Sequence record: MT446416.1 | Origin: Escherichia virus TH47 | Direction: 5' to 3' (one strand) | Length of the DNA stretch: 64,000 bases | Shown: positions 1-64,000 of the stretch, in pieces | How positions within the stretch are numbered: the first letter of the stretch is position 1 | Layout: every line of letters starts with the position of its first letter | Position numbers and translations under genes: made by a program | The notes under the pieces: model-generated | What the model was told of the DNA's origin: nothing | Seen by the model: only the letters and a program-made list of their open reading frames with translations | Database searches by the model: none

Positions 1-235
1 CTCCATAATCAAGTTTAACCAACTTACCACACAGATACCCAAAGTTTTCAGGCTTCGCATCTGAATAGAAGAAGTCAGTACTTAACTCTGAATTCAATGC
101 TAAAGCACACAACTCCACCCAAAATAAACCCCTATGTTGTACTGGCTTACAACGTTTCTGTACAGTTACTAGTCCAGTACATGATGACCACAAAGTAGGA
201 CAGATACCAGTATCACTACGCTTGGAGTACTGCAT
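1..235 (-). CDS. hypothetical protein, N-terminal part only (ORF runs off left edge)
   Basis: Hand translation: ATG at 235-233, open to position 1 (MQYSKRSDTGICPTLWSS...). No SD seen. A 16-codon SD-preceded ORF (MKLRTRNRLMDAVLQA) overlaps its start in another frame. Confidence 0.3.
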   Translation of the reverse strand, partial: MQYSKRSDTGICPTLWSSCTGLVTVQKRCKPVQHRGLFWVELCALALNSELSTDFFYSDAKPENFGYLCGKLVKLDYG

Positions 236-277
236 CCATCAGTCGATTACGAGTACGTAGTTTCATATAAGTTATCC

Positions 278-832
278 TTATTTCAAAGAATCATAGTAAG
301 CAGTGTCAAAGATTGGAGTCATAATAACATAGTCAATACGGTCAATGTAAGTTGAACTCCACATTTCTGGTTTGTCATAAAATTGACGCTCGCGTTCATT
401 CATACGAGTCAGTACTTCTTCCAATTTACTACGTGAAGCCATCAATGTATTACGCGATCCATAAGTGAAGTACTCAGTCCATTGATATTCATATTCAGTA
501 CTGATAGATTGAATAGTACCATCTTTGAAATGAGCTAAGGCATATCCTTTCTCTACAAAGTTATCAGGTGGAAGAACACCATCTGGATTAGTTTTCAATG
601 CTTTGGTTAACTTTTCTTTAATTTCAGTTAACGTGCATACTGAACGAATGTTCTTCAGGTTTGATACTTGAAAATCACTGTACTTTCCAAAGAAAAATAC
701 ACGCCAATCTTTAGGTTCATTATCAGATACGGTAATATTCGGATGATGGGCGAGTAAACGAAGAAGGCCAGCTTTGTGACCGTTAATGTAGATCTCATGG
801 ATGTGGTTAGCAGTTTTCTTAAAAGTAATCAT
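278..832 (-). CDS. hypothetical protein (184 aa)
   Basis: ORF track; GAGG SD a few nt before the ATG at 832; promoter 880-907 directly upstream. Confidence 0.75.
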   Translation of the reverse strand: MITFKKTANHIHEIYINGHKAGLLRLLAHHPNITVSDNEPKDWRVFFFGKYSDFQVSNLKNIRSVCTLTEIKEKLTKALKTNPDGVLPPDNFVEKGYALAHFKDGTIQSISTEYEYQWTEYFTYGSRNTLMASRSKLEEVLTRMNERERQFYDKPEMWSSTYIDRIDYVIMTPIFDTAYYDSLK

Positions 833-879
833 GACAATTCCTCGATTGTGGGGATGAGAAGTTCATCCCCTTGATAAAC

Positions 880-907
880 ATTATACAGTACTGAATGAGT
901 TTGTCAA
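880..907 (-). promoter_or_regulatory. sigma70-like promoter
   Basis: Minus strand reads TTGACA-aactcattcagtactg-TATAAT (16-nt spacer containing CAGTACTG). Confidence 0.6.
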
Positions 908-908
908 C

Positions 909-1289
909 TCAAAATAAATTCATTTCATGTGCGTATTGTGGTTCAAGATGCGATAAGTTTTTGAAGCTTTCTTTCAACTCAGCATCATCTACATACACCG
1001 TGCCTGGTACATTCCCCATAGTGAAACCTACCCACACAGTCATGTCACCAGTCCCTAAGCGTGGCATTGATAGCGAACCATCAGGTGAAACATCAAACGC
1101 TACACTGAAGTCATCAGTAACAACGTCATAACCATTTTCGAGAATAATACATCCACTATCTTTAAGCTTCTGAATGTGGATAGCAGCCTCTACAGCACGT
1201 TTGAAGTTATAGTAAGACTCTTTATCCTCAAACATTGATTGTTTAATCAGACGCTTGTTTAGCTCGGTTACTTTGTGCATTTGACGCAT
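909..1289 (-). CDS. hypothetical protein (126 aa)
   Basis: ORF track; its start abuts the stop of the upstream gene at 1289. Confidence 0.7.
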   Translation of the reverse strand: MRQMHKVTELNKRLIKQSMFEDKESYYNFKRAVEAAIHIQKLKDSGCIILENGYDVVTDDFSVAFDVSPDGSLSMPRLGTGDMTVWVGFTMGNVPGTVYVDDAELKESFKNLSHLEPQYAHEMNLF

Positions 1290-1546
1290 TACTTATCCAT
1301 CTCCAACAGTTGTAGAATTTCATAAGAGCCTGGTGGTGCTGGATTCCTGATCTCAGGGAATTGAGTACTTTTAGGATTACCACCAGCATTAAATTCATCA
1401 AGTAATGATTCGAGTTCATTCCTATCATGAACAACAAACACGCAATATCCAGTACCTTCTTCAAGAACAGTAGTTGAACCCGCACAATCCCATACTGTAT
1501 CAATACATAATAATTCTTTAGTGTTTTTGTTACGCAATGCAAACAT
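1289..1546 (-). CDS. hypothetical protein (85 aa)
   Basis: ORF track; packed in co-directional minus-strand array. Confidence 0.6.
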   Translation of the reverse strand: MFALRNKNTKELLCIDTVWDCAGSTTVLEEGTGYCVFVVHDRNELESLLDEFNAGGNPKSTQFPEIRNPAPPGSYEILQLLEMDK

Positions 1547-1555
1547 ATATGTCTC

Positions 1556-1900
1556 CTATCGATTCGGCATATTCTTTCGTAGTCGCAAGAGAAATTCAAC
1601 CACTGACCATGTTGAAATGAAGGTAATATAAGTTGCCAAGAATCCGGTAAGAATAAATGCAACCAGCGTACTACCATTTGGTCCATCTGCTTTAATACCA
1701 ATTATACCATCAACTACAGTGAAACATGTAGCCATTAGCGTGTAGCAGACGTACAACACAAAGAAGAACTCATTCTCCATTGAAGGGTAGAAACGGTTAA
1801 ACACTTTATAAAATTTAAAGTACAGTAGGATTATACCAACAAAGACATAAAATGTAAACAGGGTTGTTATAATATATGAGATTAGGTTCAAATTATACAT
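1556..1900 (-). CDS. small multi-pass membrane protein, tandem paralog 1 of 3
   Basis: Start re-picked at MYNLNL (GGAG SD upstream). Several hydrophobic segments. C-terminal ..LRKNMPNR tail shared with the next two genes. Confidence 0.65.
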   Translation of the reverse strand: MYNLNLISYIITTLFTFYVFVGIILLYFKFYKVFNRFYPSMENEFFFVLYVCYTLMATCFTVVDGIIGIKADGPNGSTLVAFILTGFLATYITFISTWSVVEFLLRLRKNMPNR

Positions 1901-1901
1901 A

Positions 1902-2243
1902 TTAACGCTCCGGTAAATTATCACGTAAGGTTTTAATTCGATTATACAATTTCACTGAAACATTACCAAATATACCATATCCAAGTACTAAAATGTATGC
2001 AATAAGCATAGTAATAATTACTATAGTGCCAAAACTATAATGTACACTACTGATACCCAATGTAGTTTCAACGATTATTTGGGAAAGAGAAAGAATCAAA
2101 AGTACAACTACAATAGGATGATTTGGATACATCCTATTAAATAGTGTTTTGTACTTGAAGAAGCAAAGCACTCCACCAAATAAGAAGTAAACAATGTAAA
2201 TGCAAGCAACAGCATAGGCAAACACGTTAGTGTAATAAATCAT
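1902..2243 (-). CDS. small multi-pass membrane protein, tandem paralog 2 of 3
   Basis: Track start is TTG; ATG at 2243 follows an AAGGA SD. Tail ..LRDNLPER. Confidence 0.65.
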   Translation of the reverse strand: MIYYTNVFAYAVACIYIVYFLFGGVLCFFKYKTLFNRMYPNHPIVVVLLILSLSQIIVETTLGISSVHYSFGTIVIITMLIAYILVLGYGIFGNVSVKLYNRIKTLRDNLPER

Positions 2244-2252
2244 TATCAATCC

Positions 2253-2591
2253 TTATTTTTCAGGGATATTAGAACGCCATACATCAAGGCGATGGATCAG
2301 CTCAAAAAACAACCATACTGGAAAGAAAGATATCATAACACCAAGTGATAACCCGGTCAATACCGATACCAGATTTAATTCATCAGTACTATATCCACAT
2401 ATCAGTACTTCTAATATTCCCCACGTACACGCACAGAATACCAAGAATGAAATCGGTGCATCATAATAGATACGTTCATATAAAGTAGTGTATCGGAAGA
2501 ATGCAATAATGTAGCAAAACATGAAATATACCCACATCAATGACACTACATAGAATGACACTTTATTAATTAATTCAAAATTTTGTTCCAT
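2253..2591 (-). CDS. small multi-pass membrane protein, tandem paralog 3 of 3
   Basis: ORF track; hydrophobic; tail ..WRSNIPEK. Confidence 0.65.
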   Translation of the reverse strand: MEQNFELINKVSFYVVSLMWVYFMFCYIIAFFRYTTLYERIYYDAPISFLVFCACTWGILEVLICGYSTDELNLVSVLTGLSLGVMISFFPVWLFFELIHRLDVWRSNIPEK

Positions 2592-2592
2592 T

Positions 2593-2874
2593 TTATACCT
2601 TCAAATATTCAGAAAATAATGCATGAGCTTCTTCTATATTCTTGAGATAATACATATGATATAGATTTGGTTGACCATTTTTATAACTTAAATCGAAGTA
2701 CTTTAAACTATGCACCTTCATGACAAAAACAAATAATGACTTAAAACCAATCTCACCGTACTTAATAAACAGTTCATCTAAATGAATGTAACTCTTAGTT
2801 TCAGATAATTCCTTCACATCAGCTTCAATTTCTTGTAAGCGAAGTTTACCGATTAAGTTTTCAAATGAACGCAT
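2593..2874 (-). CDS. hypothetical protein (93 aa)
   Basis: Start re-picked at MRSFENL (AAGGA SD 8 nt upstream); upstream gene stops at 2886. Confidence 0.6.
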   Translation of the reverse strand: MRSFENLIGKLRLQEIEADVKELSETKSYIHLDELFIKYGEIGFKSLFVFVMKVHSLKYFDLSYKNGQPNLYHMYYLKNIEEAHALFSEYLKV

Positions 2875-2885
2875 GATGTTGTTCC

Positions 2886-3299
2886 TTATGCTGGTACACA
2901 ATTTTTTATAATGAATACACGTTTCATGAATGAACTTTCATATACGTACTTCAGTTTACCATTTTCACGCATACGATGAAACACATCTTTACCACTAGTA
3001 CTCCAGGTTGAACCAGTCTCTGTATCAACATTGTTCATAACACCAGATGTTACGTTCACCCCGTACTTGAAGCTAAAGGTACTACCTTCTTCTACCAGAG
3101 GGATTGGTGTACTACGTTCATGTTCCAGTACAAGTTTACTGCCGATGATGTTGTACGAAGTTAGATTGCATTTTAAAACACCCATCTCTTGTGCAGTTGG
3201 GTAATTCTTCTCAAACAAATCAGATACTTCATTTGCATAACAAACTGAACTAATCATCAGAAGTAATGAACTGATAGAACGGAAAATAACTTTTAACAT
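2886..3299 (-). CDS. secreted hypothetical protein (137 aa)
   Basis: N-terminal signal-peptide-like MLKVIFRSISSLLLMISSVCYA. Confidence 0.65.
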   Translation of the reverse strand: MLKVIFRSISSLLLMISSVCYANEVSDLFEKNYPTAQEMGVLKCNLTSYNIIGSKLVLEHERSTPIPLVEEGSTFSFKYGVNVTSGVMNNVDTETGSTWSTSGKDVFHRMRENGKLKYVYESSFMKRVFIIKNCVPA

Positions 3300-3333
3300 G
3301 TTTGCCTCCAGTAGTTGATGAAATGATTATAGC

Positions 3334-3358
3334 AAAAAGGGCCGACCGAAGTCAACCC
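3334..3358 (-). terminator. intrinsic terminator (conserved cassette copy 1)
   Basis: Minus-strand RNA GGGUUGAC-UUCG-GUCGGCCC followed by UUUUU. Confidence 0.7.
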
Positions 3359-3363
3359 TTTTT

Positions 3364-3747
3364 TTATATTTTACATATTATGTCTGGTTTTGGCTTTTCA
3401 TTCTTTGGCTTTTCAAATGGATTTGGCTTAGGGGACTTTTTATCTTTGTCATCTTTAGCTTTCTTTTTGTTTTCTTTTTTATCCGATTTGTCAGCTTTGT
3501 CTTTCTTATCCTTGGAATCTTTGTCAGCTTTAGATTGTGGTTCCTCACATACAGCAGCTTTTGGCTCCGGCATATCACATGAGTTATCCACAGGTTTAAT
3601 GAACTCTTTACAGTTGTAGAAGTATAAACTTTCATTGGTAGTAAGATTGTGGAATCTAAAGGTATTTTCACCATTAGTATATACTTTCTTAGTACTCTCA
3701 ATATCATTACACATTGCAACCGTGTCACCGGAATTCATGCTCGACAC
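3364..3747 (-). CDS. hypothetical protein with Lys/Asp-rich low-complexity C-terminus (127 aa)
   Basis: ORF track; tail KADKDSKDKKDKADKSDKKENKKKAKDDKDKK; followed by a terminator. Confidence 0.6.
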   Translation of the reverse strand: MSSMNSGDTVAMCNDIESTKKVYTNGENTFRFHNLTTNESLYFYNCKEFIKPVDNSCDMPEPKAAVCEEPQSKADKDSKDKKDKADKSDKKENKKKAKDDKDKKSPKPNPFEKPKNEKPKPDIICKI

Positions 3748-3976
3748 CTAGTACATCAGATTTACGTTCAGATAGTATTCCAGACGTATATCGATCTTTG
3801 TTATCAAATGCATTGAACCCTATAGTTTTATTATTGTCATGTACTAATCCTCTAGTGTAAGACTTAGTATAGAACTCACCGTTTCTAAACTCCTGTCTAG
3901 CAATGGAGCACTGGTATTCAGTACTATAAGCTATATCAGTAAACAATACAAGTGAAAATAAAACATATTTAAACAT
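3725..3976 (-). CDS. secreted hypothetical protein (83 aa)
   Basis: Signal-peptide-like MFKYVLFSLVLFTDIAYS. Confidence 0.55.
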   Translation of the reverse strand: MFKYVLFSLVLFTDIAYSTEYQCSIARQEFRNGEFYTKSYTRGLVHDNNKTIGFNAFDNKDRYTSGILSERKSDVLGVEHEFR

Positions 3977-4012
3977 TGCATTACCTCTTATAAAAACCCT
4001 CTACAATATTTA

Positions 4013-4041
4013 CAAAAAAAAAGGTTGACCGAAGTCAACCT
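4013..4041 (-). terminator. intrinsic terminator (cassette copy 2)
   Basis: AGGUUGAC-UUCG-GUCAACCU perfect 8-bp stem plus a U8-9 run on the minus strand. Confidence 0.8.
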
Positions 4042-4050
4042 TTTAAATGT

Positions 4051-5580: not shown

Positions 5581-5623
5581 CGTGTGCCCTCCTTTAACAT
5601 AAAATATATTATTATTTATTATA

Positions 5624-6808: not shown

Positions 6809-6853
6809 GAAATATAATCCTTGAATCTTTGTTATTTCATATATTTACTATAT

Positions 6854-11850: not shown

Positions 11851-12177
11851 TTACTTCTTGCTAGTTAGTTTTTCTTTCAGGATATCAATCCAAATGGAAA
11901 CTTTACCAGCAAACAATGCATTAGCAAACCATACAATTCCAACAATGTTCTCAACTAAATTCATAATTGAAACAAAAGGTCCAATTGGGAATACAAAACT
12001 TACTAACCATGACAGTACTGAAATAAGTACTACAACAAAGAAGATTCGTGCAATAGGTGAGTCTAGCATAAACAACTCACGAAACTCATCACGCTCGGTT
12101 TCGTCTTTAATGAAGAATTCGAAAACCATAACCAATAACAGAATTAGAGCAGGAATTGAAATTAGAACTGATAACAT
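11851..12177 (-). CDS. membrane protein (108 aa)
   Basis: ORF track; hydrophobic. The antisense ORF 11858-12205 is rejected. Confidence 0.6.
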   Translation of the reverse strand: MLSVLISIPALILLLVMVFEFFIKDETERDEFRELFMLDSPIARIFFVVVLISVLSWLVSFVFPIGPFVSIMNLVENIVGIVWFANALFAGKVSIWIDILKEKLTSKK

Positions 12178-12224: not shown

Positions 12225-12252
12225 ATTATACAGTACTACGAACGTTTGTCAA
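12225..12252 (-). promoter_or_regulatory. sigma70-like promoter
   Basis: TTGACA-aacgttcgtagtactg-TATAAT on the minus strand (16-nt spacer). Confidence 0.55.
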
Positions 12253-16183: not shown

Positions 16184-16211
16184 ATTATACAGTACTGATA
16201 TCTTATGTCAA
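16184..16211 (-). promoter_or_regulatory. sigma70-like promoter
   Basis: TTGACA-taagatatcagtactg-TATAAT on the minus strand. Confidence 0.6.
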
Positions 16212-17510: not shown

Positions 17511-17741
17511 TTACATTAATCCTTCTATGCTACAACCAATAAGTACTTTTTTCACTTCAATAACTCGTACCAAATAGAATCCATTTGAAAAGTTAAAACT
17601 ATACATTTGTACTAAGGCATCTGCTTCAGATTTCGCACGGATACATGATAGATATAGTTCTCGTATATCGCCATCCAACGATGCTTGTTTCTCGTCATTG
17701 ATAACAATAGAACGAATCTCAAAACGAACACCATAACTCAT
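17511..17741 (-). CDS. hypothetical protein (76 aa)
   Basis: ORF track. Confidence 0.55.
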   Translation of the reverse strand: MSYGVRFEIRSIVINDEKQASLDGDIRELYLSCIRAKSEADALVQMYSFNFSNGFYLVRVIEVKKVLIGCSIEGLM

Positions 17742-17947
17742 TCTGTTTGTCCAACAATTAGTTTTTCTTTAGTATTACTATTGTAACACCACATTAATTC
17801 TTCACCAACTGTTCTAAGTGAAACGCTGTTTACTTGTTCATACGTACTGTCACGTACTGCAATGCATTGATTCATTGAATTCATTGGGGTGATTTGTACA
17901 CCAGATTGTGGTGAAAGAGCAATAATTAAAAAGATTACTGAATTCAT
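17738..17947 (-). CDS. secreted small protein (69 aa)
   Basis: Signal-peptide-like MNSVIFLIIALSPQSG. Confidence 0.5.
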   Translation of the reverse strand: MNSVIFLIIALSPQSGVQITPMNSMNQCIAVRDSTYEQVNSVSLRTVGEELMWCYNSNTKEKLIVGQTE

Positions 17948-18552
17948 TAGATATTCCTCAATGGTTAATCATCCATCTCTTCGAGATGTCTGTTCGCTTC
18001 TAATACTACGTATTCTACGCGAATGAATCATAACTGTCAAGGACTTTTAATATTGACGGGATTTGTTGAGGACTTTTTCATCCCCCGCAGGGGAATGATG
18101 GTAAGAAAAAAGAGACAATTAAGTCTCTTCTTGACGCTGATGGCATCGGATTTTATTGTATCGTGAATTTAGGACGGATCTATATTGTAATAAATCAATC
18201 GCAAACGGAAGCGGGTTGCTCTGTTTCTCCCTATCACGGTCATATGCAACGGTCACTGGTCTTTTCATCCCAGCACTCACTTAAAACTCCATACAATCGA
18301 AGTTCAAGCTGTCTTATAATAAGACTCCCTTAGCAAATCTGGTAAGGTGCGATCCTTATATGTCTATCGAGGAACTCTCGGTATGCTTATCGGAGTTCTT
18401 TATACAGCCGCATTGCCGTGAGGGGTTCAAACTATGCCCACATCTAACGGGTTTCTTTTGCTGTTCGTTCTGTAGCACAACTCATCTGCCCTCTACATTT
18501 TCGAGTGGTTCAGGATTATTTTATTCTAAATGAGCTACAGGTTTTTTTTATT
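17948..18552 (-). ncRNA. candidate large structured non-coding RNA (strand uncertain)
   Basis: 605 nt with no ORF of 60 aa or more in any frame. Hand-counted 60-nt lines are 42-48% G+C versus 28% for a line in the adjacent gene. Several 6-8-bp hairpins (18079-18100, 18110-18129, 18371-18399). Confidence 0.35.
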
Positions 18553-18558
18553 CTAAAT
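18519..18558. repeat. 13-nt direct repeat TTTTATTCTAAAT x2 (18519-18531, 18546-18558)
   Basis: Read directly; the second copy spans the stop codon of the AP2/HEG-like gene. Confidence 0.7.
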
Positions 18559-19185
18559 TTTACTTAATGACAAAGTAATACGTCCATTAAGTAAATCATC
18601 GTTTAAAACATCAATTCTACGTTGTAAACCTTTTATTACACCATCTGACACACTATTATTATATTTTTTAATAATATCAGAAAGATGTTCTTTTTTGGCT
18701 AATTGCCATTTTGCATGAGCTTCTTCAGGTGTGGGAAATGCACCCAAATGATATTTTTTCTTATTTTTGTAAATTTGTGCATAATATGGATTTTTGTATT
18801 CAAAACTCATATTTTTTTTAGGTATATGATAACAAACACCAAGTGGTTGATTTTTATTATTTTTGTCAATGATACACATGTTTATTTCATTTGGTACAAA
18901 TGAACACGTTTCAGGAGAATACATTTTTTTATTACCGTCGATTAAATCTTTATCTAATTCATAACCATCTTTGTAATTTGATATATACCATTCTTTAAAT
19001 TTAGAGTATGTTTTCCATTCATCACATATAATAACTCCTATATATGTTTTATGAGTTTCTTGATACTTTTCAGAATAACATCGTTTTATCATATCTTTCC
19101 ATGTATAATAAACTTTACTATAAACACTTTTTTTTGTGGAATCACCTTTAACATCATTGATTCCAAAACCATATACCAATTTCAT
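18553..19185 (-). CDS. AP2-domain, homing-endonuclease-like DNA-binding protein (210 aa)
   Basis: YYTWKDMIKRCYSEKYQ..Y.GV.ICDEWKTYSKFKEWY, then KKYHLGAFPTPEEAHAKWQLAKKEH (AP2-like). Free-standing between a terminator and the ORF-free segment. Confidence 0.55.
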   Translation of the reverse strand: MKLVYGFGINDVKGDSTKKSVYSKVYYTWKDMIKRCYSEKYQETHKTYIGVIICDEWKTYSKFKEWYISNYKDGYELDKDLIDGNKKMYSPETCSFVPNEINMCIIDKNNKNQPLGVCYHIPKKNMSFEYKNPYYAQIYKNKKKYHLGAFPTPEEAHAKWQLAKKEHLSDIIKKYNNSVSDGVIKGLQRRIDVLNDDLLNGRITLSLSKI

Positions 19186-19246
19186 ATTAAATTCCAATTA
19201 TGGTTATCATACTAACATTGTATCACACTTTCTAAATTTGTCCCAT

Positions 19247-19280: not shown

Positions 19281-20246
19281 TTAAAAATCTTCGAACTCAT
19301 AACCTTTTGTCTTAACCATCTTACGCAGTCGTTCCATTGCTTCAGAGTACTTACGGTGCAATGAAGAACGAGCAGTCATGACCTTACCCTTCTCATCTTC
19401 AAAACCACTCTCAATGATTTCTCGTAGCGTTTCTGGTTCAGAATAAGAACCAATACCATGTACACGTTCAATCAATTCACGGTCTTTGGCAGATAGGTTA
19501 CTCATCATTTCTGCAATACTTTGTACCAGTGGGGTACTGACAGTTTCTACGCCTAAGTTGTAATCAGGTTCAACTGAAGTAACAATGTCAGATAATGTAC
19601 TTTCTGAATCATTACTCATTTTCATATTCAATGCTACATAAGTGTTATTGTAAGTTAGACAATTCTTAACGTGTTGAATCTCAATACCAGTCTCTTTTGA
19701 CACCATCTCAGGAGTTGGGTATTTACCATGTTTCCTTTGATACTCTTCAACACAACGTTTCACATAAATGTTATTAACACTCATATAACGTGGGAAATGC
19801 ACTAGATAATTAGCATCTGCACTTTCGTTATAGATTGTCATGTACACAGTTGTTGTTGCATATGTAATGAACTTAACATTTTTGGTAGTGTCGAACGTAT
19901 GAATTGCTCGCATTAAACCTTCAACACCATAAGAAATCTTATCTTCAAATGGGATAAAACATGTACATTTACGTGCAACACTTACTACCATTGGATAGTT
20001 GTAGCGAACCAAAAGGTCAATGTTCTTTTCAACGTCAATACCATCACGCACTGCTTGGATGAGCATTTCATTCGTTATACCTTTAGGGCGAGTTAAACTG
20101 ATACCTGTTTTTGGTTTCTCAAACTTGTGACCGTCATGTTCTTCTTCATCAACCGAATCTAGAGCCTCTAAGACGTTGACTTCTTCACTAGCAAAACACT
20201 CATCCAGTACTTCTTCAAAAATTGCATTTAAATCAAGCTTTTTCAC
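19281..20246 (-). CDS. sigma-70 family RNA polymerase sigma factor (321 aa)
   Basis: Region-2-like LVRYNYPMVVSVARKC...YGVEGLMRAIHTFD..KFITYATTTVYMTIYNE. Region-4-like LSAKDRELIERVHGIG...TLREI...RSSLHRKYSEAMERLRKM. Confidence 0.8.
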   Translation of the reverse strand: MKKLDLNAIFEEVLDECFASEEVNVLEALDSVDEEEHDGHKFEKPKTGISLTRPKGITNEMLIQAVRDGIDVEKNIDLLVRYNYPMVVSVARKCTCFIPFEDKISYGVEGLMRAIHTFDTTKNVKFITYATTTVYMTIYNESADANYLVHFPRYMSVNNIYVKRCVEEYQRKHGKYPTPEMVSKETGIEIQHVKNCLTYNNTYVALNMKMSNDSESTLSDIVTSVEPDYNLGVETVSTPLVQSIAEMMSNLSAKDRELIERVHGIGSYSEPETLREIIESGFEDEKGKVMTARSSLHRKYSEAMERLRKMVKTKGYEFEDF

Positions 20247-24105: not shown

Positions 24106-24329
24106 ACCTCTTTTACAATAATGTCGATTTGCACAGGAATAGCAATCTCACTATTGCATGAATAAACATCTGCACAGTACTCAATATCTAGTACTTCATA
24201 GTATTTTTCAAAGCCACAGATTGTAAGATTCAACGTAGCACCAATAGCTGGCAATACGGGAAAGGATAAAAATGCAATTTTAGAATTAAATTCTTCATTA
24301 ATATCTTGATATACAGTGGCAGTAATCAT
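24102..24329 (-). CDS. hypothetical protein (75 aa)
   Basis: ORF track; ATGA overlaps. Confidence 0.55.
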   Translation of the reverse strand: MITATVYQDINEEFNSKIAFLSFPVLPAIGATLNLTICGFEKYYEVLDIEYCADVYSCNSEIAIPVQIDIIVKEV

Positions 24330-24910
24330 AATGGTAACTCCTGAAGTGGTTTAATAATACTCAGTACTGGGTGATTTTCAATCATCGGTCGCCCTGGTAC
24401 ACCTGTTAGCACAACTGGAATCGAACTAATGTCTTTTACATAGTTGAATCCCTCAAATGTGAATTCTTGCTTTTTCTCATTATACAATACCCACAGAATA
24501 ACGTCAGCTTTTTTCTGTATATTTTTTAACTGTCGAGTACTAACACATGGTCCAAAGTCTGTCCACGATTTGTACTTGATACCTTTCACTTCAATTCTTA
24601 AGTTGTTTACTTTGATATCACATTCACCATCACGACCATCACTTTGGAACGCTGGATCAATGTTAAGTGCAATACCTGAATAGTTTTCAATTTCATTAAA
24701 AAGTACAAATGATGCATGTTCACATACCATCCCTACAAAATGACTGTGAGCGTGATTAAATCCATACGGCGATTTACTTGCAGGTGCAAGAATCTTATAT
24801 CGTTCAGATTTCTCAATTGCTTTAGCCATAAAAGAATCAGCTTCATCTTTGTATAGCTTAACAGTCATTTTGCCATTTTTCAGTACTAAACGTTTTTCTA
24901 CAACACTCAT
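24326..24910 (-). CDS. hypothetical protein, possible PD-(D/E)xK nuclease fold (194 aa)
   Basis: ..DGRDGECDIKVNNLRIEVKG.. fits a D-x(n)-E-x-K pattern; weak motif-only call. Confidence 0.6.
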   Translation of the reverse strand: MSVVEKRLVLKNGKMTVKLYKDEADSFMAKAIEKSERYKILAPASKSPYGFNHAHSHFVGMVCEHASFVLFNEIENYSGIALNIDPAFQSDGRDGECDIKVNNLRIEVKGIKYKSWTDFGPCVSTRQLKNIQKKADVILWVLYNEKKQEFTFEGFNYVKDISSIPVVLTGVPGRPMIENHPVLSIIKPLQELPL

Positions 24911-32477: not shown

Positions 32478-32583
<106 letters not shown>

Positions 32584-32627: not shown

Positions 32628-33145
<518 letters not shown>

Positions 33146-34507: not shown

Positions 34508-34721
<214 letters not shown>

Positions 34722-34733
34722 AAATTAATTATA

Positions 34734-35126
<393 letters not shown>

Positions 35127-35489: not shown

Positions 35490-35514
35490 ATTATATCAGT
35501 ACTGAACTATTTAG

Positions 35515-35518
<4 letters not shown>
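35490..35518 (-). promoter_or_regulatory. sigma70-like promoter (extended -10)
   Basis: TTGACT-aaatagttcagtactga-TATAAT; the -35 overlaps the stop of 35515-35871. Confidence 0.6.
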
Positions 35519-35898: not shown

Positions 35899-36101
<203 letters not shown>

Positions 36102-47437: not shown

Positions 47438-49327
47438 TCAAAAGAATATCTCTCGTAGTAAGTGTGATATAACTGGCATAGTCCATCCATTCCCAAGCAT
47501 TTTATATGCTTGTGTCTTACTAGACACTTTAAAGAAATCTTCAGGAACGCCCTGTAATTTACAACATTCTACTACACTTAAGTGTCTATAGTCAATATTT
47601 CTTTTACCATTCTCTAATAGATATTGACGATTAATCATTGGGTCACGAAACACCAATTGTCGTCTTGATTTATTAAAGTACTGGTTGCAATCACCACCCT
47701 TAAAATAGTTAGCATCTATACAGTACGAAGCGGTCCTGTCAGTGTACCAACCATCTTCAATGATATCTTGAAGTTTAGGGGCATTTGATAATGCAGGTGG
47801 TATAAAAAGCTTATCAGTACTGCACCAGTAGTATCTCTGCCTGAAGTGAGGCGTATAATGCTGGGAATTTATCAGTACTGGTGTCATCTCAAGAACACTA
47901 TTAATATATTGCTTGAAATCTTCTTTCATTTTAACATTCTCGAACAGTACTTTCAAGTCTGGATTGAGACTTTTTATGTGCTCATAAATGTCAACCATTG
48001 TATGAAACAACATTCCACGCGGATCATTTATTCCACCCTGTTTACCTGCAACAGACCAAGATTGACAATTGTGCACAACTATGTTATTTGCGGTATATGT
48101 ATTGTCAACGGCAACTTCAAAATTATATACGGTTTTCCATTCACCTGTCGAAATACTTGTTTTTATACCTTTAACCCATGAATAATTTTCGTCATAAAAA
48201 GCTTCCTCTTTTTTGGGTTTGTCTTTTTTATATGATAAAACATAATACGGTTTTTGGTTTACAATTCGTCCCTCAATAACTTTAGTTTTTTCTGGTTCGG
48301 TAAGGCTTATGTTGGAATGTCTTCCGTAAACGTTCATTATTAATTGTTGGACACCTAATACACAGTCTATTGATGTTGTAGTGAATTTATAACAATTACT
48401 ATCAATATGACCATCTGCATCAAAATATCCATCAAGGAATGCTTTTTGGTTCTGTACACATTCATTGAATAAATCGGGATGAACTTTCTTATTAGATGCA
48501 CCTTTACCCATTTGTTCACAGAATTCAACGAGTTCTTTTGAACATATATAAAATTTATATGATGTTCTTTCTTTGACATAATTATATTTCATGTTCATAC
48601 CTTCAAAACACGAAATCAATTCATCAAATTCATCATGTGCACAACAGATGAAAACTCTATACTGGTAACTATTCTTTCTATTATTACGCTTTACTTTATA
48701 AGTCCATCCGTCACCCATAAAGCGTCCCATAAAATACCAGAATTTTTCATCTTTTGATGATTTACTAGATTCAATTGATTTAACATTACAAAGAAAATGT
48801 TCAGATGTTAATTCGTGTGCCTCAACCCATTCAGGTTCAGTGAAGGATCGTTCAGATTGTCTAATTCTGTTATTCCAGCTAGACGACATTTTTCTAGCAT
48901 AAAATGGATGATTATCAGTGCATTCAATTGGGATATGACCTTGACCAGTTATAATACGGGTTGGTGCTTTTTTAACACCTGTACTCAATACTGGATGATA
49001 TTGTCCAGTATGTGTTAGTACCATGTCACCAACTTGAATGTCTTTAATGTCTTTATGACCTTTATCGGTCATTATCATTGTTCCTTCCGTGAAGCACGGG
49101 AACCCTCCCATGAGAAGGTCAATTTTATCCCACTCAATATCCCATTCTCTCCATTTAGTTACATCACCCAATTGGGTGATATCAGGAAAGTTAGCTTGAG
49201 ATTCAGCTATTGCGTACTTGTCAATTTCGGATGAATAATATTTTTCAACAGGGATACCAGCATCTTTTAATGCCATGTATCCCACACTCATCCCATTAAA
49301 AAGAGATAGTACTCGGATAGGTTTCAT
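47438..49327 (-). CDS. DNA (cytosine-5) methyltransferase precursor containing an intein (629 aa; 286 aa after splicing)
   Basis: Motif I LSLFNGMSVG; motif IV GGFP|C..intein..HN|CQSWSVAG; ENV (VLFENVKM); QRYYW; ECCKLQGVPEDF; MLGNGWTMPV. Confidence 0.9.
   Translation of the reverse strand: MKPIRVLSLFNGMSVGYMALKDAGIPVEKYYSSEIDKYAIAESQANFPDITQLGDVTKWREWDIEWDKIDLLMGGFPCFTEGTMIMTDKGHKDIKDIQVGDMVLTHTGQYHPVLSTGVKKAPTRIITGQGHIPIECTDNHPFYARKMSSSWNNRIRQSERSFTEPEWVEAHELTSEHFLCNVKSIESSKSSKDEKFWYFMGRFMGDGWTYKVKRNNRKNSYQYRVFICCAHDEFDELISCFEGMNMKYNYVKERTSYKFYICSKELVEFCEQMGKGASNKKVHPDLFNECVQNQKAFLDGYFDADGHIDSNCYKFTTTSIDCVLGVQQLIMNVYGRHSNISLTEPEKTKVIEGRIVNQKPYYVLSYKKDKPKKEEAFYDENYSWVKGIKTSISTGEWKTVYNFEVAVDNTYTANNIVVHNCQSWSVAGKQGGINDPRGMLFHTMVDIYEHIKSLNPDLKVLFENVKMKEDFKQYINSVLEMTPVLINSQHYTPHFRQRYYWCSTDKLFIPPALSNAPKLQDIIEDGWYTDRTASYCIDANYFKGGDCNQYFNKSRRQLVFRDPMINRQYLLENGKRNIDYRHLSVVECCKLQGVPEDFFKVSSKTQAYKMLGNGWTMPVISHLLREIFF
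48068..49096 (-). mobile_element. intein with LAGLIDADG homing-endonuclease domain (343 aa, residues C78-N420)
   Basis: Starts CFTEGTMIMT; block B VLTHTGQYHP; LAGLIDADG motifs FWYFMGRFMGDGW and KAFLDGYFDADGH; ends NNIVVHN followed by the +1 Cys of the PCQ motif. Confidence 0.88.
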
Positions 49328-56170: not shown

Positions 56171-56172
56171 AT

Positions 56173-57328: not shown

Positions 57329-57340
57329 AATAAATCCTAT

Positions 57341-57366
57341 AGAAAATGAGAGTACAATGTACTCCC
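57341..57366 (-). terminator. probable intrinsic terminator after the LemA-like gene
   Basis: Minus RNA GGGAGUACA..UGUACUCUC plus AUUUUCU. Confidence 0.45.
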
Positions 57367-57375
57367 AGATTTAGA

Positions 57376-59021: not shown

Positions 59022-59024
59022 GTA

Positions 59025-59714
59025 TTAGTCCAGTTTAAGTTTATTGAGACAATAGGAGATTTGGATAGCTTCACGTGCTGCATCATACAGAGGGTGATGT
59101 AATTCCAAACCATTAATACCACATTTTTCTACATACTTCACGAATTTAGCTAACTGCACTGACACAATCTCATCCATTTCGGTGCGAGCTTCTTCATTCA
59201 ATAAACGCTTCAGGGTTCGTGCGTTTTCAGGAGCATCATATTTCCACAAATCACCAACATTCAATAGTTTTAAGTGATTAGCTTGTAAAATACTACAGTC
59301 GAAGTTGCAGCCATTTCCCCAAATTGAATGTTCAACCTCTTTACCATAACAATCAAAACGGATATCTTTCCAGAAATCGACAATAGCATTAGAAGTAAAG
59401 ATTTGTTTGGATTTACCATTAGGACCGTACAATTCTGGTGCAACAAGTGCCATAGTACTGGCAACTTCAGCATATGCATTAGGATATTCCTTCTGACATG
59501 TATTCATCCAGAAATCCATTGCACCTGCATCTGATTTCAGCCCAGCGTTGACTTGTGCTTGGTATGGTAACTTAACATATACAAATTGTCTGATATCATG
59601 TTCAGGTTTACTTGGAACAACTACTGCTGCATAATTTGGAATAATAATATCATAACCAGAGTTTTCAGGAGTACCGAGAGCTTCGATATCAACACTAACA
59701 TGACGGCGTTTCAT
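59025..59714 (-). CDS. DEDDh-type 3'-5' exonuclease (229 aa)
   Basis: Exo I VSVDIEALG; Exo II GNGCNFDCSIL; Exo III HHPLYDAAREA (H-x4-D). Confidence 0.7.
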   Translation of the reverse strand: MKRRHVSVDIEALGTPENSGYDIIIPNYAAVVVPSKPEHDIRQFVYVKLPYQAQVNAGLKSDAGAMDFWMNTCQKEYPNAYAEVASTMALVAPELYGPNGKSKQIFTSNAIVDFWKDIRFDCYGKEVEHSIWGNGCNFDCSILQANHLKLLNVGDLWKYDAPENARTLKRLLNEEARTEMDEIVSVQLAKFVKYVEKCGINGLELHHPLYDAAREAIQISYCLNKLKLD

Positions 59715-59736
59715 ATTTCGTTCCTTATCTGTATAT

Positions 59737-59784
59737 TAAAAAAGAGTGCGTTTCAATAAGAACATTATATTGAAAACGCACTCT
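59737..59784 (-). terminator. intrinsic terminator after the TelA gene
   Basis: 11-bp perfect stem AGAGTGCGTTT / AAACGCACTCT with a 20-nt loop, followed by a U run on the minus strand. Confidence 0.6.
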
Positions 59785-59795
59785 TGTGTCAACTA

Positions 59796-60938
59796 TTACT
59801 TGTTAGCTTTTTCAGCAATTTCACGAAGAGTATCTTCGAGTTCATGAGAGAGTTTTGCGATTTCAATCTTAGCACGCTCACGCTCTTCTTTACCTTTCTT
59901 CTCTTCAATCAGTACTGCTTCGATACTATCGATCATTGTTTTATGTACATTACGCAATGTTTTAATATCCACGATACCACGATTATTTGCTTTAGCAGCA
60001 TCCAACATGTTAGTTGCTACCATTTTAGAGTTTACTTCGAGTAAACGGTTAGTTTCATTGTCAATCAGATTACCCAACTCATTGTCTTTACGTTGACGTT
60101 CGGAAATCAACTGTTCAGCCAATTGTGATTTCCATGCTGGAATAACAACTGATTTCAAATCCTCAAACTTAGAAACAGTGTTGAGGTTTACTTTCTTCAT
60201 ACTCATCAGGCGAGGACCACTCAGTTCACACATCATGATAAGACGACGAATCTTATCTTCCTGCTTAGAAAGAGCTTCACAAATCATCTTTTGCTCCTGG
60301 ATTGCAAAAGAATCAACGTCAGGGTTCGCTTGCATTGCTACCAATTCAGCATCTTGTGCTTTGGTAACTTCTTCCAACTCAACTAACGTATCACGCAGTT
60401 CAAAGAGATAGTTTTTGTTTTCGTTGTAAGCAGTGTCTAGCCATGCACATTCCCCATGCTGGCGGTTAATACCAACCTGAAGAGTGTTCATGATTTCATC
60501 AATTTGTTCTTTACTGTTTTTGTACTGATCGCCAACTTTCTGTTTAGCATTAACAAAGAGTTTTTTGACCCAGCCTACGATTGATTTATCATCCTGTAGA
60601 CTATCAATATCAACTGCACGTGTCAATGTCAAGATAGTAGTAATAGACTTACCGAATTCGGTATTATCATCAGTGACGTTAACTTTTGACATGATTTCAT
60701 CAGCCAAACGTCCTACACCTGCCCCAGCAGTGGTTCCGATGGTATTAATATTCTGCACAGTTAAAGCCATACTGTTACCTTTGGTATCTTTCAGTACTGG
60801 AAGTGACTTGGACTGTTGTTCGAAGATATCAGTTGCGTCAATTGTGTGTGCTGCTGTTTTGGTAGTACGTTTGGCAGTTTTGGTTGCTTTGGCTTGTTTA
60901 ACTGTTGCTTTTTTCGGATTGATTTCTTTCTCGGACAT
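59796..60938 (-). CDS. telA: TelA/YceH/KlaA-family toxic-anion-resistance protein (380 aa)
   Basis: Start re-picked at MSEKEINP (GAGGA SD). C-terminus ..NNRGIVDIKTLRNVHKTMIDSIEAVLIEEKKGKEERERAKIEIAKLSHELE closely parallels B. subtilis YceH ..[50 protein letters not shown] (from memory). Confidence 0.8.
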   Translation of the reverse strand: MSEKEINPKKATVKQAKATKTAKRTTKTAAHTIDATDIFEQQSKSLPVLKDTKGNSMALTVQNINTIGTTAGAGVGRLADEIMSKVNVTDDNTEFGKSITTILTLTRAVDIDSLQDDKSIVGWVKKLFVNAKQKVGDQYKNSKEQIDEIMNTLQVGINRQHGECAWLDTAYNENKNYLFELRDTLVELEEVTKAQDAELVAMQANPDVDSFAIQEQKMICEALSKQEDKIRRLIMMCELSGPRLMSMKKVNLNTVSKFEDLKSVVIPAWKSQLAEQLISERQRKDNELGNLIDNETNRLLEVNSKMVATNMLDAAKANNRGIVDIKTLRNVHKTMIDSIEAVLIEEKKGKEERERAKIEIAKLSHELEDTLREIAEKANK

Positions 60939-61020
60939 TGTGTATTCCTCAGTTAATTTAAGATAGTGTTGCTCAGTGATAAACATTCTACAGGCAACAC
61001 TCAGTACTGTCAACTACTTT

Positions 61021-62148
61021 TTACTCTTTATTTCCATACGCCAGGTTACGAATGATATTGGCAGTATCTTCATCAACTGCTTTACCAGTTTGAGCTTGCA
61101 AACGGCCTATGATCAATGGGATAGTGATAGTTTGAATATCAATCATTCGGCTCATATCAATCTGATACTGCTTACTAACACCAACAATACTAGTTTCAGT
61201 CATTGCTGTTGAAATCCCCATTTTCATAATACGTTCAAGCGTCAGTTCATATTCAAATGGATCTTCCAAACGACGAATTGCATATTCACACCCAATCTTA
61301 CCATACTCAAGTTCATTTTTGATTTCACGAACTTCATCACGAATTTCAGTGAATAAAGTCGTAATACCACTAAACTTATTCGTATCGTACTTCACTGCTT
61401 CATTCAATGCTTTCATTACTTTTGGTAAATCAGTTGGCTGTACTTTGATATCAGCTTTCCCAAACAACTTCTGTGTAAATGTAGGCTTCAAAGGGAATAA
61501 CTTTTCCAGTGCTGTTGTAAGGTTACCCATTAATAAACGGATATAATCACTATGCTGCTGTAATGCTGCGTTTAAATCCAACTGACGCTCGGAGATCTTC
61601 TGAATCTTCACACCAACTTCTTGTGCACATACTGGTAGGTTTACATACCAATCCAGAACCTTCACCGGATCTTTTTTAATTGTATCTGGAAAATCCATCC
61701 AACGTTCAATGTCAGCAACCATATCACATTCAGGGTCGATAGGTTTCTTCTTAAGAACAATCGGAGCCGGAACTTCTGGTGAAGTAGCTACTGCTGCCAT
61801 GTTTGGACGAAGTTTACCTTCCTTCCAGTCTCGGTACTCCTTCTCTAACGGAGGAATTGGGAGATCTGGAACGATTCTCACATTTGAGAAATGAATTTTA
61901 TCTTTCATTAAATCCATTACCTTCAAACGGCGATTATCAAAATAGATCTCGTCAAGTGAAAGTGAACGTGTGTCGAAATGTGGATTTCCCAGTGAATCGT
62001 ATGTTCTGTCCACAACAATGGTATACATATATTTTCGATTCGATGAACGGTCATACTGTTTTAACAGTGAGTTAAGAACGTAGTTGAAGTTAAATTCTTT
62101 GATTTCGACTTCTTTACCGTTGTCAATGAAAAAATATTTTCCTTTCAT
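61021..62148 (-). CDS. hypothetical protein, possible distant TelA-like paralog (375 aa)
   Basis: C-terminal ..IDIQTITIPLIIGRLQAQ.. resembles the TelA ..ILNTIPLWKNQM.. region; weak. Confidence 0.7.
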   Translation of the reverse strand: MKGKYFFIDNGKEVEIKEFNFNYVLNSLLKQYDRSSNRKYMYTIVVDRTYDSLGNPHFDTRSLSLDEIYFDNRRLKVMDLMKDKIHFSNVRIVPDLPIPPLEKEYRDWKEGKLRPNMAAVATSPEVPAPIVLKKKPIDPECDMVADIERWMDFPDTIKKDPVKVLDWYVNLPVCAQEVGVKIQKISERQLDLNAALQQHSDYIRLLMGNLTTALEKLFPLKPTFTQKLFGKADIKVQPTDLPKVMKALNEAVKYDTNKFSGITTLFTEIRDEVREIKNELEYGKIGCEYAIRRLEDPFEYELTLERIMKMGISTAMTETSIVGVSKQYQIDMSRMIDIQTITIPLIIGRLQAQTGKAVDEDTANIIRNLAYGNKE

Positions 62149-62188
62149 TACTGACCTCTTAATTAATTAAAATTGATACGATACGTAC

Positions 62189-62217
62189 ATTCTACATACA
62201 CACGATGTATTTGTCAA
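62189..62217 (-). promoter_or_regulatory. sigma70-like promoter
   Basis: TTGACA-17 nt-TAGAAT on the minus strand, upstream of 61021-62148. Confidence 0.55.
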
Positions 62218-62230
62218 ACCATTTTTTAAA

Positions 62231-62259
62231 AGAAAAAAGGACGCACCTTAGTGCATCCT
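62231..62259 (-). terminator. intrinsic terminator overlapping the last codons of 62248-63066
   Basis: Minus RNA AGGAUGCAC-UAAG-GUGCGUCCU plus U6; the TAA stop sits in the loop. Confidence 0.7.
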
Positions 62260-63066
62260 TTTGTTACTCTTGTCCTTGTACCACACAAATGTTTTTACTG
62301 GTGGGTACTTTTCATTCTTCGGTGGCTCCGGCATATCATACACAGTTGCATTTCTGAATTTCAAAATGTATGAATCCATTAAACGAATTATACAATAGTT
62401 CATGCACTTTTGTGCACGTTCTTTCCAAAAATGTTTATATGGTTCTGGACACCCAAGATAATCCAATTTGTACATACCCATAGCAGCTTGCATAAAGCGT
62501 TGGGCAGAGAACTTACGCTTGTCTACCTTACTAGCTCGATGCTGGTCACATGTCCAACTAGAGATACCAGGGAGATGACAGAATAAATCAAAACTCACCA
62601 TACTATCAAAGTACTTGTTATGACCGTTCAACTCTCCATAAAATACCGCTTCGGAAACAGTTTCATATAGTGAGTAATTTGTATGTATATGTTCATTGTC
62701 AAATATAGCTTTTAGATCTTTGTAAGTTTCTGGTACTGGTGGCTCTGGTAAAACTTCACCGAACGTCTCTAAGCACCAAATCTTCCACAAGCCTTTCGTA
62801 AATTTTACTTCAAGTTCTTTATCGCTGTCAATATAAAAAGTTTTCTCATTGATAAAAACTTTTCGTGCCATGTATGCTTTGAATACCGCATCAGGGTCGA
62901 TATCTTCACGTTTGATATCGTCCCATCCTTTACCGATTCGAGAAATTTCGAATCGTCTCATATACATCCTACATGCCAAATCTTTAGTTGTACTACGATG
63001 ATACTTGTCGTCTTGATGAAGTTTGGTAGTCTCATGGAGAGATTTAAGCATGTTTAAAATTCTCAT
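62248..63066 (-). CDS. hypothetical protein (272 aa)
   Basis: ORF track. Confidence 0.75.
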   Translation of the reverse strand: MRILNMLKSLHETTKLHQDDKYHRSTTKDLACRMYMRRFEISRIGKGWDDIKREDIDPDAVFKAYMARKVFINEKTFYIDSDKELEVKFTKGLWKIWCLETFGEVLPEPPVPETYKDLKAIFDNEHIHTNYSLYETVSEAVFYGELNGHNKYFDSMVSFDLFCHLPGISSWTCDQHRASKVDKRKFSAQRFMQAAMGMYKLDYLGCPEPYKHFWKERAQKCMNYCIIRLMDSYILKFRNATVYDMPEPPKNEKYPPVKTFVWYKDKSNKRMH

Positions 63067-63743
63067 CGTAACACCAAATACTTCCCATCTTTACCTACTA
63101 CATACTGATTACCGCTACGTAGGACGCTATAACTTTCACCTAGTACCGAACTTAAGCGAGATGTATCTACCTGCGTATCGTTCGATAGAAGCTGTTTTAC
63201 GTATGCTTCTGACACAAATCCACTACCAGTACTGTAATGTAGTTTACCATATGCAGTGTTTAGTGCAAGCATGTGACCTTCTTTAACAACAGATACACCA
63301 GCAAAGTCTAAAAATTCACTGATGGATTTAGGAATACCCAAATCGATACGTTGTTGAATTTCATCAAAATCAACATCAATCGGATCATTCACACCATAAA
63401 GCTGAATCTTCCAGCCAGGATTTGGGCAAATGTTTTCAATAGTTTTGATAAGACGAAGTAGGTTTTCTGGAAATTCCGCATCACGTTCCATTTCAACGAA
63501 TACCTGATAACGACCATCCAGGTTAGGTGTTTCAGCAGCTTCAGTATCAACTGCATCAATTGGAGACTTCTCAATAAAAGATGACAGGTCATATGCAGCA
63601 TCAAAGTTGTTTAGTACTTGAAACATAACAACGATATTACTATCTTCAATCTTAGGAGTATATTCATCTACACTAATAATAGGATGAATCAAATCCTTTA
63701 GTACTTGTGGACGTAAACCTTGTTCATTTAGTTTCTTTTTCAT
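63063..63743 (-). CDS. hypothetical protein (226 aa)
   Basis: ORF track; ATGA overlaps. Confidence 0.75.
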   Translation of the reverse strand: MKKKLNEQGLRPQVLKDLIHPIISVDEYTPKIEDSNIVVMFQVLNNFDAAYDLSSFIEKSPIDAVDTEAAETPNLDGRYQVFVEMERDAEFPENLLRLIKTIENICPNPGWKIQLYGVNDPIDVDFDEIQQRIDLGIPKSISEFLDFAGVSVVKEGHMLALNTAYGKLHYSTGSGFVSEAYVKQLLSNDTQVDTSRLSSVLGESYSVLRSGNQYVVGKDGKYLVLR

Positions 63744-63994
63744 TGCATACCACCTTGTTGTACATCATCAGATACTTCTACATCTAAATCAACATCTTCA
63801 CCAGTAATTGGATCATCTGATGGTTCTTGTGCATTCATAGGATTACTATTGAATTCTGAAGCCATTAGTTTGTATTCATCAAAACTTTCAGGGTTAATTA
63901 AGTTTCTGGGAATTTGTACACGAACCAATAGAACTGGAATTCGTTCATTTTTTGGAATGCGAACAGAACCAGATTGCGTAGCCACACTCTTCAT
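63740..63994 (-). CDS. hypothetical acidic protein (84 aa)
   Basis: ORF track; the start is 6 nt from the window edge, so the true N-terminus could lie further upstream. Confidence 0.5.
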   Translation of the reverse strand: MKSVATQSGSVRIPKNERIPVLLVRVQIPRNLINPESFDEYKLMASEFNSNPMNAQEPSDDPITGEDVDLDVEVSDDVQQGGMQ

Positions 63995-64000
63995 ATCAGC

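Follow-up and report, generated by a model that had tools for sequence, protein, structure and literature searches.

The DNA considered here is a stretch of 64,000 nucleotides of Escherichia virus TH47 (sequence record MT446416.1), referred to throughout as the window, and the element in question is the short palindrome AGTACT, together with its octameric form CAGTACTG, which an earlier note had described as extremely over-represented both in promoters and inside genes. The window is DNA of an Asteriusvirus jumbo coliphage (121Q/PBECO4-like, or "Rak2-like") that matches Ecwhy_1, EC.P1, 121Q and PBECO4 with 90-96% identity in patches, and 55 kb of it could be aligned with approximately 48-109 kb of 121Q at a mean identity of 82.7%. 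It represents the early region, with about 130 small open reading frames (ORFs; the greedy set made in this analysis), almost all of them on the minus strand. Besides tRNA genes it encodes a phage sigma-70-family factor (19281-20246), a TelA-like protein and HNH endonucleases, with few further Pfam matches. The G+C content is 34.3%, close to the base composition that had been estimated by eye. The DNA sampled for comparison comprised 150 kb of 121Q and 17-41 kb for each other genus, some of it picked around promoters or marker genes.

The octamer CAGTACTG is present in 40 exact copies, compared to an expectation of 0.75 from 100 dinucleotide-preserving shuffles, the largest of which contained 4, and expectations of 0.62 and 0.81 from order-0 and order-1 Markov models. 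The copies start at 496, 886, 4401, 7384, 12013, 12631, 13977, 14130, 14736, 14828, 16190, 22926, 24362, 28261, 29119, 30279, 31222, 31688, 32513, 32634, 33059, 33630, 35497, 35909, 37670, 37701, 39226, 39305, 45555, 47815, 47873, 50119, 52181, 53171, 54539, 56114, 59910, 60792, 61002 and 63227. All 39 starts that had been found by hand are exact, and the copy at 12013 is additional; the hand counts of 12, 7 and 3 AGTACT in three 3-kb samples were exactly right. For AGTACT itself the count is 156, compared to 17.8-21.5 expected, and for GTAC 463, compared to 205. Under both order-1 and order-3 Markov models CAGTACTG ranks first among 8-mers and AGTACT first among 6-mers. It had been suggested that an observed to expected ratio near 1 under models of order 3 to 5 would argue against the excess, but at order 3 there are still 40 copies of CAGTACTG against 4.56 expected and 156 of AGTACT against 60. 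The ratio for CAGTACTG drops to 2.8 at order 4 and 1.45 at order 5 because these models are trained on AGTAC, GTACT, AGTACT and CAGTAC, which are the signal itself; they are thus uninformative as a test of the excess and do not refute it.

The possibility raised by the earlier note, that the excess reflects a favoured dipeptide or codon pair in a single frame, was addressed with codon-aware null models. Within genes there are 32 copies of CAGTACTG, compared to 2.25 under synonymous-codon shuffling (z approximately 20) and 0.88 under codon-order shuffling, and 141 copies of AGTACT, compared to 33.7 under synonymous-codon shuffling. The octamer is distributed 5/13/13 over the three reading frames, with 8 copies intergenic and 1 in a plus-strand ORF; for genic AGTACT the figures are 60/31/50, which represent enrichments over the synonymous shuffle of 3.7-, 5.7- and 4.2-fold. 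Since enrichment is similar in all frames, the excess is not owed to one dipeptide or one frame. The codons AGT-ACT are used for 60 of the 117 Ser-Thr pairs when codon usage predicts 16, and the dipeptides Ser-Thr (1.54-fold) and Val-Leu (1.47-fold) are among the most over-represented in the window, whereas the reversed pairs Thr-Ser and Leu-Val are at 1.0. Independence of frame, survival of the codon-aware nulls and the raised dipeptides together point to a pressure on the DNA that is strong enough to bend the proteome.

The enrichment is graded and synergistic. GTAC alone is 1.25-fold over-represented, GTAC with one matching flank 2.1-fold, AGTACT 8.8-fold, AGTACT with one outer C or G 11.8-fold and CAGTACTG 49-fold, and among one-base variants of the octamer those altered at positions 1 or 8 are enriched 13.9-fold, compared to 1.4- to 3.9-fold at the inner positions. 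Sequence information is limited to AGTACT and the adjoining bases, where C is preferred ahead of the core and G behind it, with almost none beyond -1/+1; the preference stands at 0.46-0.50 in Asteriusvirus and RaK2 and is weaker in the other phages, and G ahead of the core is disfavoured. Such symmetry and graded enrichment are typical of a dimer site. The short-range spacing of AGTACT is near-exponential with a mean of 410 bp, except for promoter pairs 20-21 bp apart, and the octamer occurs approximately once per 1.6 kb (131 copies against 2.7 expected when the window and 150 kb of 121Q are taken together). About 90% of the AGTACT copies lie inside genes and no preferred place within genes or operons was found, except that the 25 bp upstream of start codons contain none. 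The density of AGTACT is equal in coding and intergenic DNA, and that of CAGTACTG is about twice as high between genes. Extended forms are also frequent (TCAGTACTGA, n=9; TTCAGTACTGAA, n=6), and a perfect 14-bp palindrome, ATTCAGTACTGAAT, occurs twice in the tRNA-gene region, at 32510-32523 and 32631-32644, 121 bp apart.

Comparison with 121Q shows that individual sites are retained. Across the aligned DNA AGTACT was kept at 100 of 144 sites (69%), whereas all hexamers were kept at 42% and composition-matched ones at 43%; among the matched words TAGTAC, which overlaps the motif, comes next in conservation. Third-codon identity is 84.8% inside the motif, 73.3% in its flanks and 70.6% overall, with changes half as frequent inside it as elsewhere, and the ten or so intergenic copies that could be aligned are 100% identical. 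Losses and gains are balanced at 44 each, and no directional substitution bias was seen in this turnover, including no bias between C and T. AGTACT is therefore maintained by purifying selection on DNA across one phage clade, and the original suggestion of selection at the DNA level, made from the different frames in which the copies occur, has been strengthened by the codon-aware nulls and by the conservation of sites and third-codon positions.

The excess is shared across this clade, at 10-14-fold in every Rak2-like genus sampled. Observed and expected counts of AGTACT were 46 against 4.3 and 115 against 8.8 in RaK2, 107 against 10.1 in GAP32, 74 against 6.8 in CBB, 81 against 7.4 in XbC2, 63 against 6.0 in Salmonella phage Munch, 77 against 5.5 in Yersinia phage fHe-Yen9-04 and, in the Erwinia phages pEa_SNUABM_50 and pEa_SNUABM_12, 76 against 6.1 and 56 against 4.6, respectively. 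The sigma factors of these genera are only 33-40% identical. Per 50 kb of 121Q there are 76 copies in the replication and structural modules, against 12.7 expected, and 131 and 221 in early regions, with a peak of 6.5 per kb at 130-150 kb. No excess was found in the more distant Pseudomonas phage PA5oct (3 against 9.5 and 2 against 6.3) or in approximately 70 unrelated viral contigs that carry C5 methyltransferase homologues of less than 55% identity. In a 50-kb sample of Escherichia coli K-12 the density was 0.22 per kb, compared to 2.4-6.5 per kb in the phage. The searchable literature yielded no mention of an AGTACT motif in these phages.

A minority of the copies occupy fixed places in promoters. 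Four promoters with the motif in the spacer had been reported in the window (880-907, 16184-16211, 35490-35518 and 35903-35930); their positions are correct, but they are to be read on the minus strand. The first is an early sigma-70-type promoter of the form TTGACA-N8-CAGTACTG-TATAAT, in which the box (887-892) abuts the -10 hexamer (880-885) and lies downstream of the -35 hexamer (902-907), and the box is kept in the orthologous promoter of 121Q (locus L003, +7509). The promoter at 16184-16211 has the same form (box 16191-16196), as have those at 35903-35930 (box 35910-35915), with TTGACT as the -35, and at 35490-35518 (TTGACT-N8-CAGTACTG-a-TATAAT; box 35498-35503); a minus-strand promoter at 12225-12252 has the hexamer box only (TTGACA-N8-tAGTACTg-TATAAT; box 12232-12237). 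In a paired-box promoter on the same strand at 34728-34761 (AGTAC-TGGACA-N..-AGTACTga-TATAAT), upstream of tRNA-Ser (34632-34721), the two boxes (34756-34761 and 34736-34741) start 20 bp apart, and this two-box layout recurs in RaK2, Yen9-04, CBB, Serratia BF and 121Q. Among the 55 sigma-70-like promoter candidates on the gene strand of the window, 6 have AGTACT in the spacer when about 0.5 would be expected; in five of these it lies directly before the -10, and a further -10-adjacent copy, at 34736-34741, came from a separate scan. In the 100-150 kb region of 121Q the proportion was 22 of 65.

A scan of IMG/VR for CAGTACTGTATAAT produced many chance matches and 15 loci with an AGTACT excess of at least 8-fold, most of which are on contigs of about 350 kb, including RaK2, 121Q, CBB, Yen9-04 and Serratia BF; the others, one contig of 109 kb and two short ones, are taken to be fragments of genomes of that size. 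RaK2 has 10 exact CAGTACTGTATAAT within 11 kb. The architecture common to RaK2, Yen9-04, CBB, Serratia BF, 121Q and metagenomic relatives is aaaAGTAC-TTGACA (or TTGCAw), 9-10 nt, then AGTACT(g/t)(g)-(T/C)ATAAT, and the start-to-start distances of neighbouring AGTACT therefore show sharp peaks at 20 bp (47 pairs) and 21 bp (23 pairs), compared to a baseline of about 5. This distance is approximately two helical turns, which places the two boxes on one face of the helix. The registers AGTACT(G)-TATAAT and AGTAC-TTGACA are fixed across six genera, and TTGAC-AGTACT recurs as a third. UP-like elements have been remarked on at these promoters in the CBB paper (PMC5259590). Arrays of very short ORFs, each behind a near-identical strong promoter with AGTACT boxes, were observed at 137-150 kb of 121Q, probably its terminal-repeat or immediate-early region, and in RaK2.

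The reading that we favour, tentatively and at somewhat less than even odds, is that AGTACT, preferably as CAGTACTG, is recognised by a putative DNA-binding protein that would be symmetric, probably as a dimer, and specific to the Rak2-like clade. At early promoters of the host sigma-70 type one box abuts the -10 hexamer and there is often a second that extends into the upstream edge of the -35; in these positions the boxes would most likely act as an operator switching early transcription; two identical palindromes on one helix face, overlapping the polymerase contacts, would have the layout of a classic operator pair. The intragenic copies are kept by a selection on the DNA that biases codon choice and dipeptide content, and the dispersed sites may serve to load the factor preferentially onto phage DNA rather than onto that of the host, which has about 0.2 sites per kb. 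We infer the binding, the operator role of the promoter copies and the concentrating role of the dispersed ones from sequence. Phage P1 has many C1 operators for one global repressor, and the promoter copies resemble these in that one short site is reused at many promoters, overlapping -35 and -10; C1-type operators, however, number tens and nearly all of them are at promoters, whereas here more than 90% of the hundreds to thousands of copies lie in genes, and the sites are compact, symmetric 6-8-mers. The proposal of the earlier note that the motif is the site of a global regulator or nucleoid-type protein remains the best reading and has gained the conserved promoter registers, but Pfam and PHROGs searches yielded no binder.

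Several points weigh against it. No DNA-binding domain, and neither a helix-turn-helix (HTH) nor a ribbon-helix-helix (RHH) protein, was detected by Pfam in the 133 ORFs of the window, and an XRE-type HTH regulator beside the sigma gene, which was considered as the binder, is confined to Mimasvirus. A regulator needs only a few operators, and none is known that would explain a genic site every 410 bp, so that the concentrating role is conjecture. The proximal UP-element consensus is reportedly AAAAAARNR (Estrem and colleagues, 1999); AAAAAAGTA fits it, and the upstream box could be simply an UP element. A compact palindrome of six base pairs is also typical of the target of a methyltransferase or nuclease, and such an enzyme would produce the same sequence statistics.

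The window does encode a methyltransferase, at 47438-49327 on the minus strand, which is a C5 cytosine enzyme (PF00145, E = 1.8e-32) interrupted by an intein with Hint and LAGLIDADG domains. The intein (approximately 48068-49096, 343 aa) directly precedes the catalytic Cys of motif IV (GGFP-C...VVHN-CQSWS) and is lacking from the 121Q enzyme; tblastn matches limited to aa 78-286 in ph0011, JNE01, UE-S1 and A4 suggest other intein-bearing alleles. The spliced protein is 286 aa long and 93% identical to 121Q gp91, and its nearest solved relatives are the catalytic domains of DNMT3. These domains are CpG methylases. RaK2 DNA has been reported to be CpG-methylated by bisulfite analysis, with the data not shown, and to resist all but methylation-insensitive enzymes (PMC3622015). 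Orthologues of at least 63% identity are found in Asteriusvirus, EJP2, Mimasvirus and the RaK2 group, and none appeared for Munch-like phages or Eneladusvirus in tblastn hit lists at E <= 1e-100; that those phages lack any C5 enzyme is read from the hit counts, and the Eneladusvirus paper mentions 'adenine or cytosine' methylases in loose terms. AGTACT contains no CpG and the excess persists where the orthologue was not found, and the C5 enzyme is probably not what drives it. SmaI, NruI and ClaI are blocked by CpG methylation. All three are among the ten enzymes that cut as predicted in the fEgEco12 paper, and this fits only awkwardly with full CpG methylation in Asteriusvirus.

A different methyltransferase provides the basis for what is the main alternative, possible although on balance unlikely, in which AGTACT or GTAC would be its target (a target for DNA modification had also been listed in the earlier note) and methylation at the dispersed sites and in promoters would mark or time phage DNA, for example by distinguishing parental from new DNA, or guide repair; this and a DNA-binding factor are not mutually exclusive. 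The candidate is gp447 of RaK2 (about 172 aa; locus L092, 6980-7498), a PF05869 Dam-family adenine methyltransferase (E = 1.3e-27), with orthologues in 32 Escherichia records (Asteriusvirus), 10 from Klebsiella and 8 from Erwinia, in Yersinia phage Yen9-04 and in pEa_SNUABM_50 (L093, 10001-10540). Its gene lies outside the window in conserved synteny, with a cytidylyltransferase gene next to it, and this is the only methyltransferase whose distribution fits, being found in all Rak2-like genera including Eneladusvirus, while the paper on PA5oct, which has no excess, mentions no methyltransferase. The compact palindrome has nested enrichment, from GTAC through AGTACT to CAGTACTG, and its deviations are concentrated at the outer bases, as has been described for the cyanobacterial palindrome HIP1 (PMC4390886), and the resistance of RaK2 DNA to all but methylation-insensitive enzymes points the same way. 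However, methylation by itself gives no reason for sites to accumulate, and the phage sigma factor and probably many other clade genes share the same pattern of presence and absence, so that the correlation with the PF05869 enzyme is weak. Characterised members of this family are GATC-specific or non-specific, and we know of none that recognises GTAC or AGTACT. Dcm/Vsr very-short-patch (VSP) repair in E. coli causes oligonucleotide skews, and the arrangement there of a methyltransferase gene with an overlapping small ORF has a parallel in the window, where a small ORF overlaps the stop codon of the C5 methyltransferase gene, as in vsr/dcm, and a palindrome is over-represented. The excess might then have accumulated neutrally by biased repair or gene conversion, for example by a VSP-like process coupled to the C5 enzyme and restoring C in AGTA(C/T)T, and a model of this type has been proposed for HIP1 (PMC4390886), but this is very unlikely here. 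The overlapping ORF has no match to Vsr or to anything else in Pfam, AGTATT/AATACT is not depleted (ratio 0.97-1.32, equal to the two other substitutions at that position) and turnover shows no C/T bias, so that a Vsr-like partner and a VSP footprint were both rejected. Moreover, the excess is far larger than the E. coli skews and is the same in Eneladusvirus and Munch-like phages, where no C5 orthologue was found, the DNMT3-like enzyme is probably CpG-specific, and conservation site by site, complete between genes, fits selection better; this explanation has been largely refuted.

That the sites bind a protein of the Enterobacterales host, which the phage would titrate or redirect, is improbable. 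A candidate is SlmA, the E. coli nucleoid-occlusion factor and the best-known host protein of this kind, whose site, GTGAGTACTCAC, is a palindrome with the core AGTACT, dispersed over the genome (PMC3020112). The hosts of the clade are nearly all Enterobacterales, the Pseudomonas phage PA5oct has no excess and the densest copies are in promoter-rich early and terminal regions. SlmA requires G1, T2, a purine at 3, A4 and G5 (PMC3020112), but not one of approximately 950 phage copies has the GTR...YAC flanks, and at position 3 the phage prefers C and disfavours G, the wrong base class; the phage sites are not members of this class, and XbC2, which was reported on Xanthomonas, shows the excess. 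To our knowledge no other host regulator has an AGTACT site. About equally improbable is that the word is selected only in promoters, through direct contacts with RNA polymerase (upstream of -35 by the C-terminal domain of the alpha subunit, alpha-CTD, and upstream of -10 by sigma region 3), the intragenic copies being a by-product in the form of decayed or cryptic promoters. The fixed registers beside -35 and -10 in many genera would fit this, as would the match of AAAAAAGTA to the proximal UP-element consensus, the TG near -14 that is provided by a box ending in CTG and the UP-like elements of the CBB paper (PMC5259590). However, no more than 7 of the window's 156 copies adjoin a -10-like hexamer and 49 of its 55 strong promoters have no AGTACT, the intragenic copies are randomly spread, in all frames and individually conserved, and such contacts do not predict the same palindrome at two promoter positions. 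Selection on protein or RNA rather than DNA, through dipeptides, codon pairs or an RNA motif, is scarcely credible. It could draw on the preference of the coding strand for AGTACTGA(A) over its complement (48 against 27) and on AGT and ACT being the commonest Ser and Thr codons, but it is refuted by the frame and shuffle tests described above, by the excess in intergenic DNA, by the conservation of synonymous third positions and by the perfection of the palindrome despite nearly all genes lying on one strand. A Chi-like recombination or packaging signal, which had also been put forward, is unlikely because a perfect palindrome has no orientation, and because the copies show a near-random distribution that takes in early, replication and structural regions alike. 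A link with tRNA anticodon loops was rejected, as tRNA-Ser(act) of 121Q does not contain AGTACT.

The closest known phenomenon, by analogy, is HIP1 (GCGATCGC), an octameric palindrome that is 15-300 times over-represented in cyanobacteria at about one copy per gene, both within and between ORFs, and that, being conserved between genomes, is maintained by selection (PMC5861425). Orphan methyltransferases recognising nested sub-sequences accompany its abundance. No evidence was found that it regulates gene expression (PMC5861425). The phage word has the features of a HIP-type element in its octamer excess, its independence of frame, its presence within and between ORFs, the conservation of its sites and the concentration of deviations at the outer positions. 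It differs in that it is AT-rich, viral and restricted to one clade of jumbo phages, that a six-base core carries most of the signal, that it has a fixed place in promoters and that for a cognate methyltransferase it has a candidate only, the PF05869 enzyme.

Phage genomes avoid short palindromes that are restriction sites, and AGTACT is the site of ScaI/Eco255I. In the window GCGC is absent when 30 copies are expected, neither AGGCCT nor AGCGCT occurs, and GATC and CTAG are under-represented approximately 1.4- to 2-fold; with AGTACT the same genomes run the opposite way by an order of magnitude. GCGC is likewise absent from every AGTACT-rich locus sampled (the window, L001-L004, L084-L087, L089, L091-L094 and the 15 IMG/VR loci), so that the absence of one word and the excess of the other co-occur in every sample; PA5oct has neither, its GCGC frequency being normal, and E. 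coli has 7.1 GCGC per kb. It is conceivable, although rather doubtful, that Rak2-like phages tell their own unmodified DNA from that of the host by sequence content, AGTACT being kept as a positive mark and GCGC purged as a negative one. A phage factor reading AGTACT might then steer transcription or other transactions to phage DNA, and host DNA might be destroyed at GCGC by the predicted PD-(D/E)XK nuclease of 194 aa encoded in the early region at 24326-24910, which has invariant E64, D98 and E107-x-K109 and is the most conserved early protein of the clade (64-69% identical across genera).

A whole clade of 350-kb phages thus does the opposite of avoidance for one word, to the point of shaping codon choice and protein sequence. 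HIP1, the only comparable case, has gone three decades without an established function, and a phage of 350 kb with a short life cycle and defined promoter positions should be much more tractable. Were a protein that binds or modifies the motif to be found, it would explain early gene control in these little-understood jumbo phages, in which approximately 80% of the genes lack an assigned function, it could reveal how self DNA is marked without wholesale base modification, and it would provide a simple signature by which to recognise the clade in metagenomes.

One further feature of the early region lies apart from the AGTACT copies. Between the genes at 17738-17947 and 18553-19197 there is an ORF-free stretch of about 400 nt (approximately 18103-18510, minus strand) that is visibly richer in G and C and contains no AGTACT and no match to Rfam. 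A terminator-like hairpin with a T-run after it (AAGAGAC-TTAATT-GTCTCTT-TTTTCT) closes the stretch, which is partly kept in the matching intergenic gaps of GAP32, CBB, XbC2, Munch and pEa_SNUABM_12, and it may be an undescribed phage non-coding RNA.

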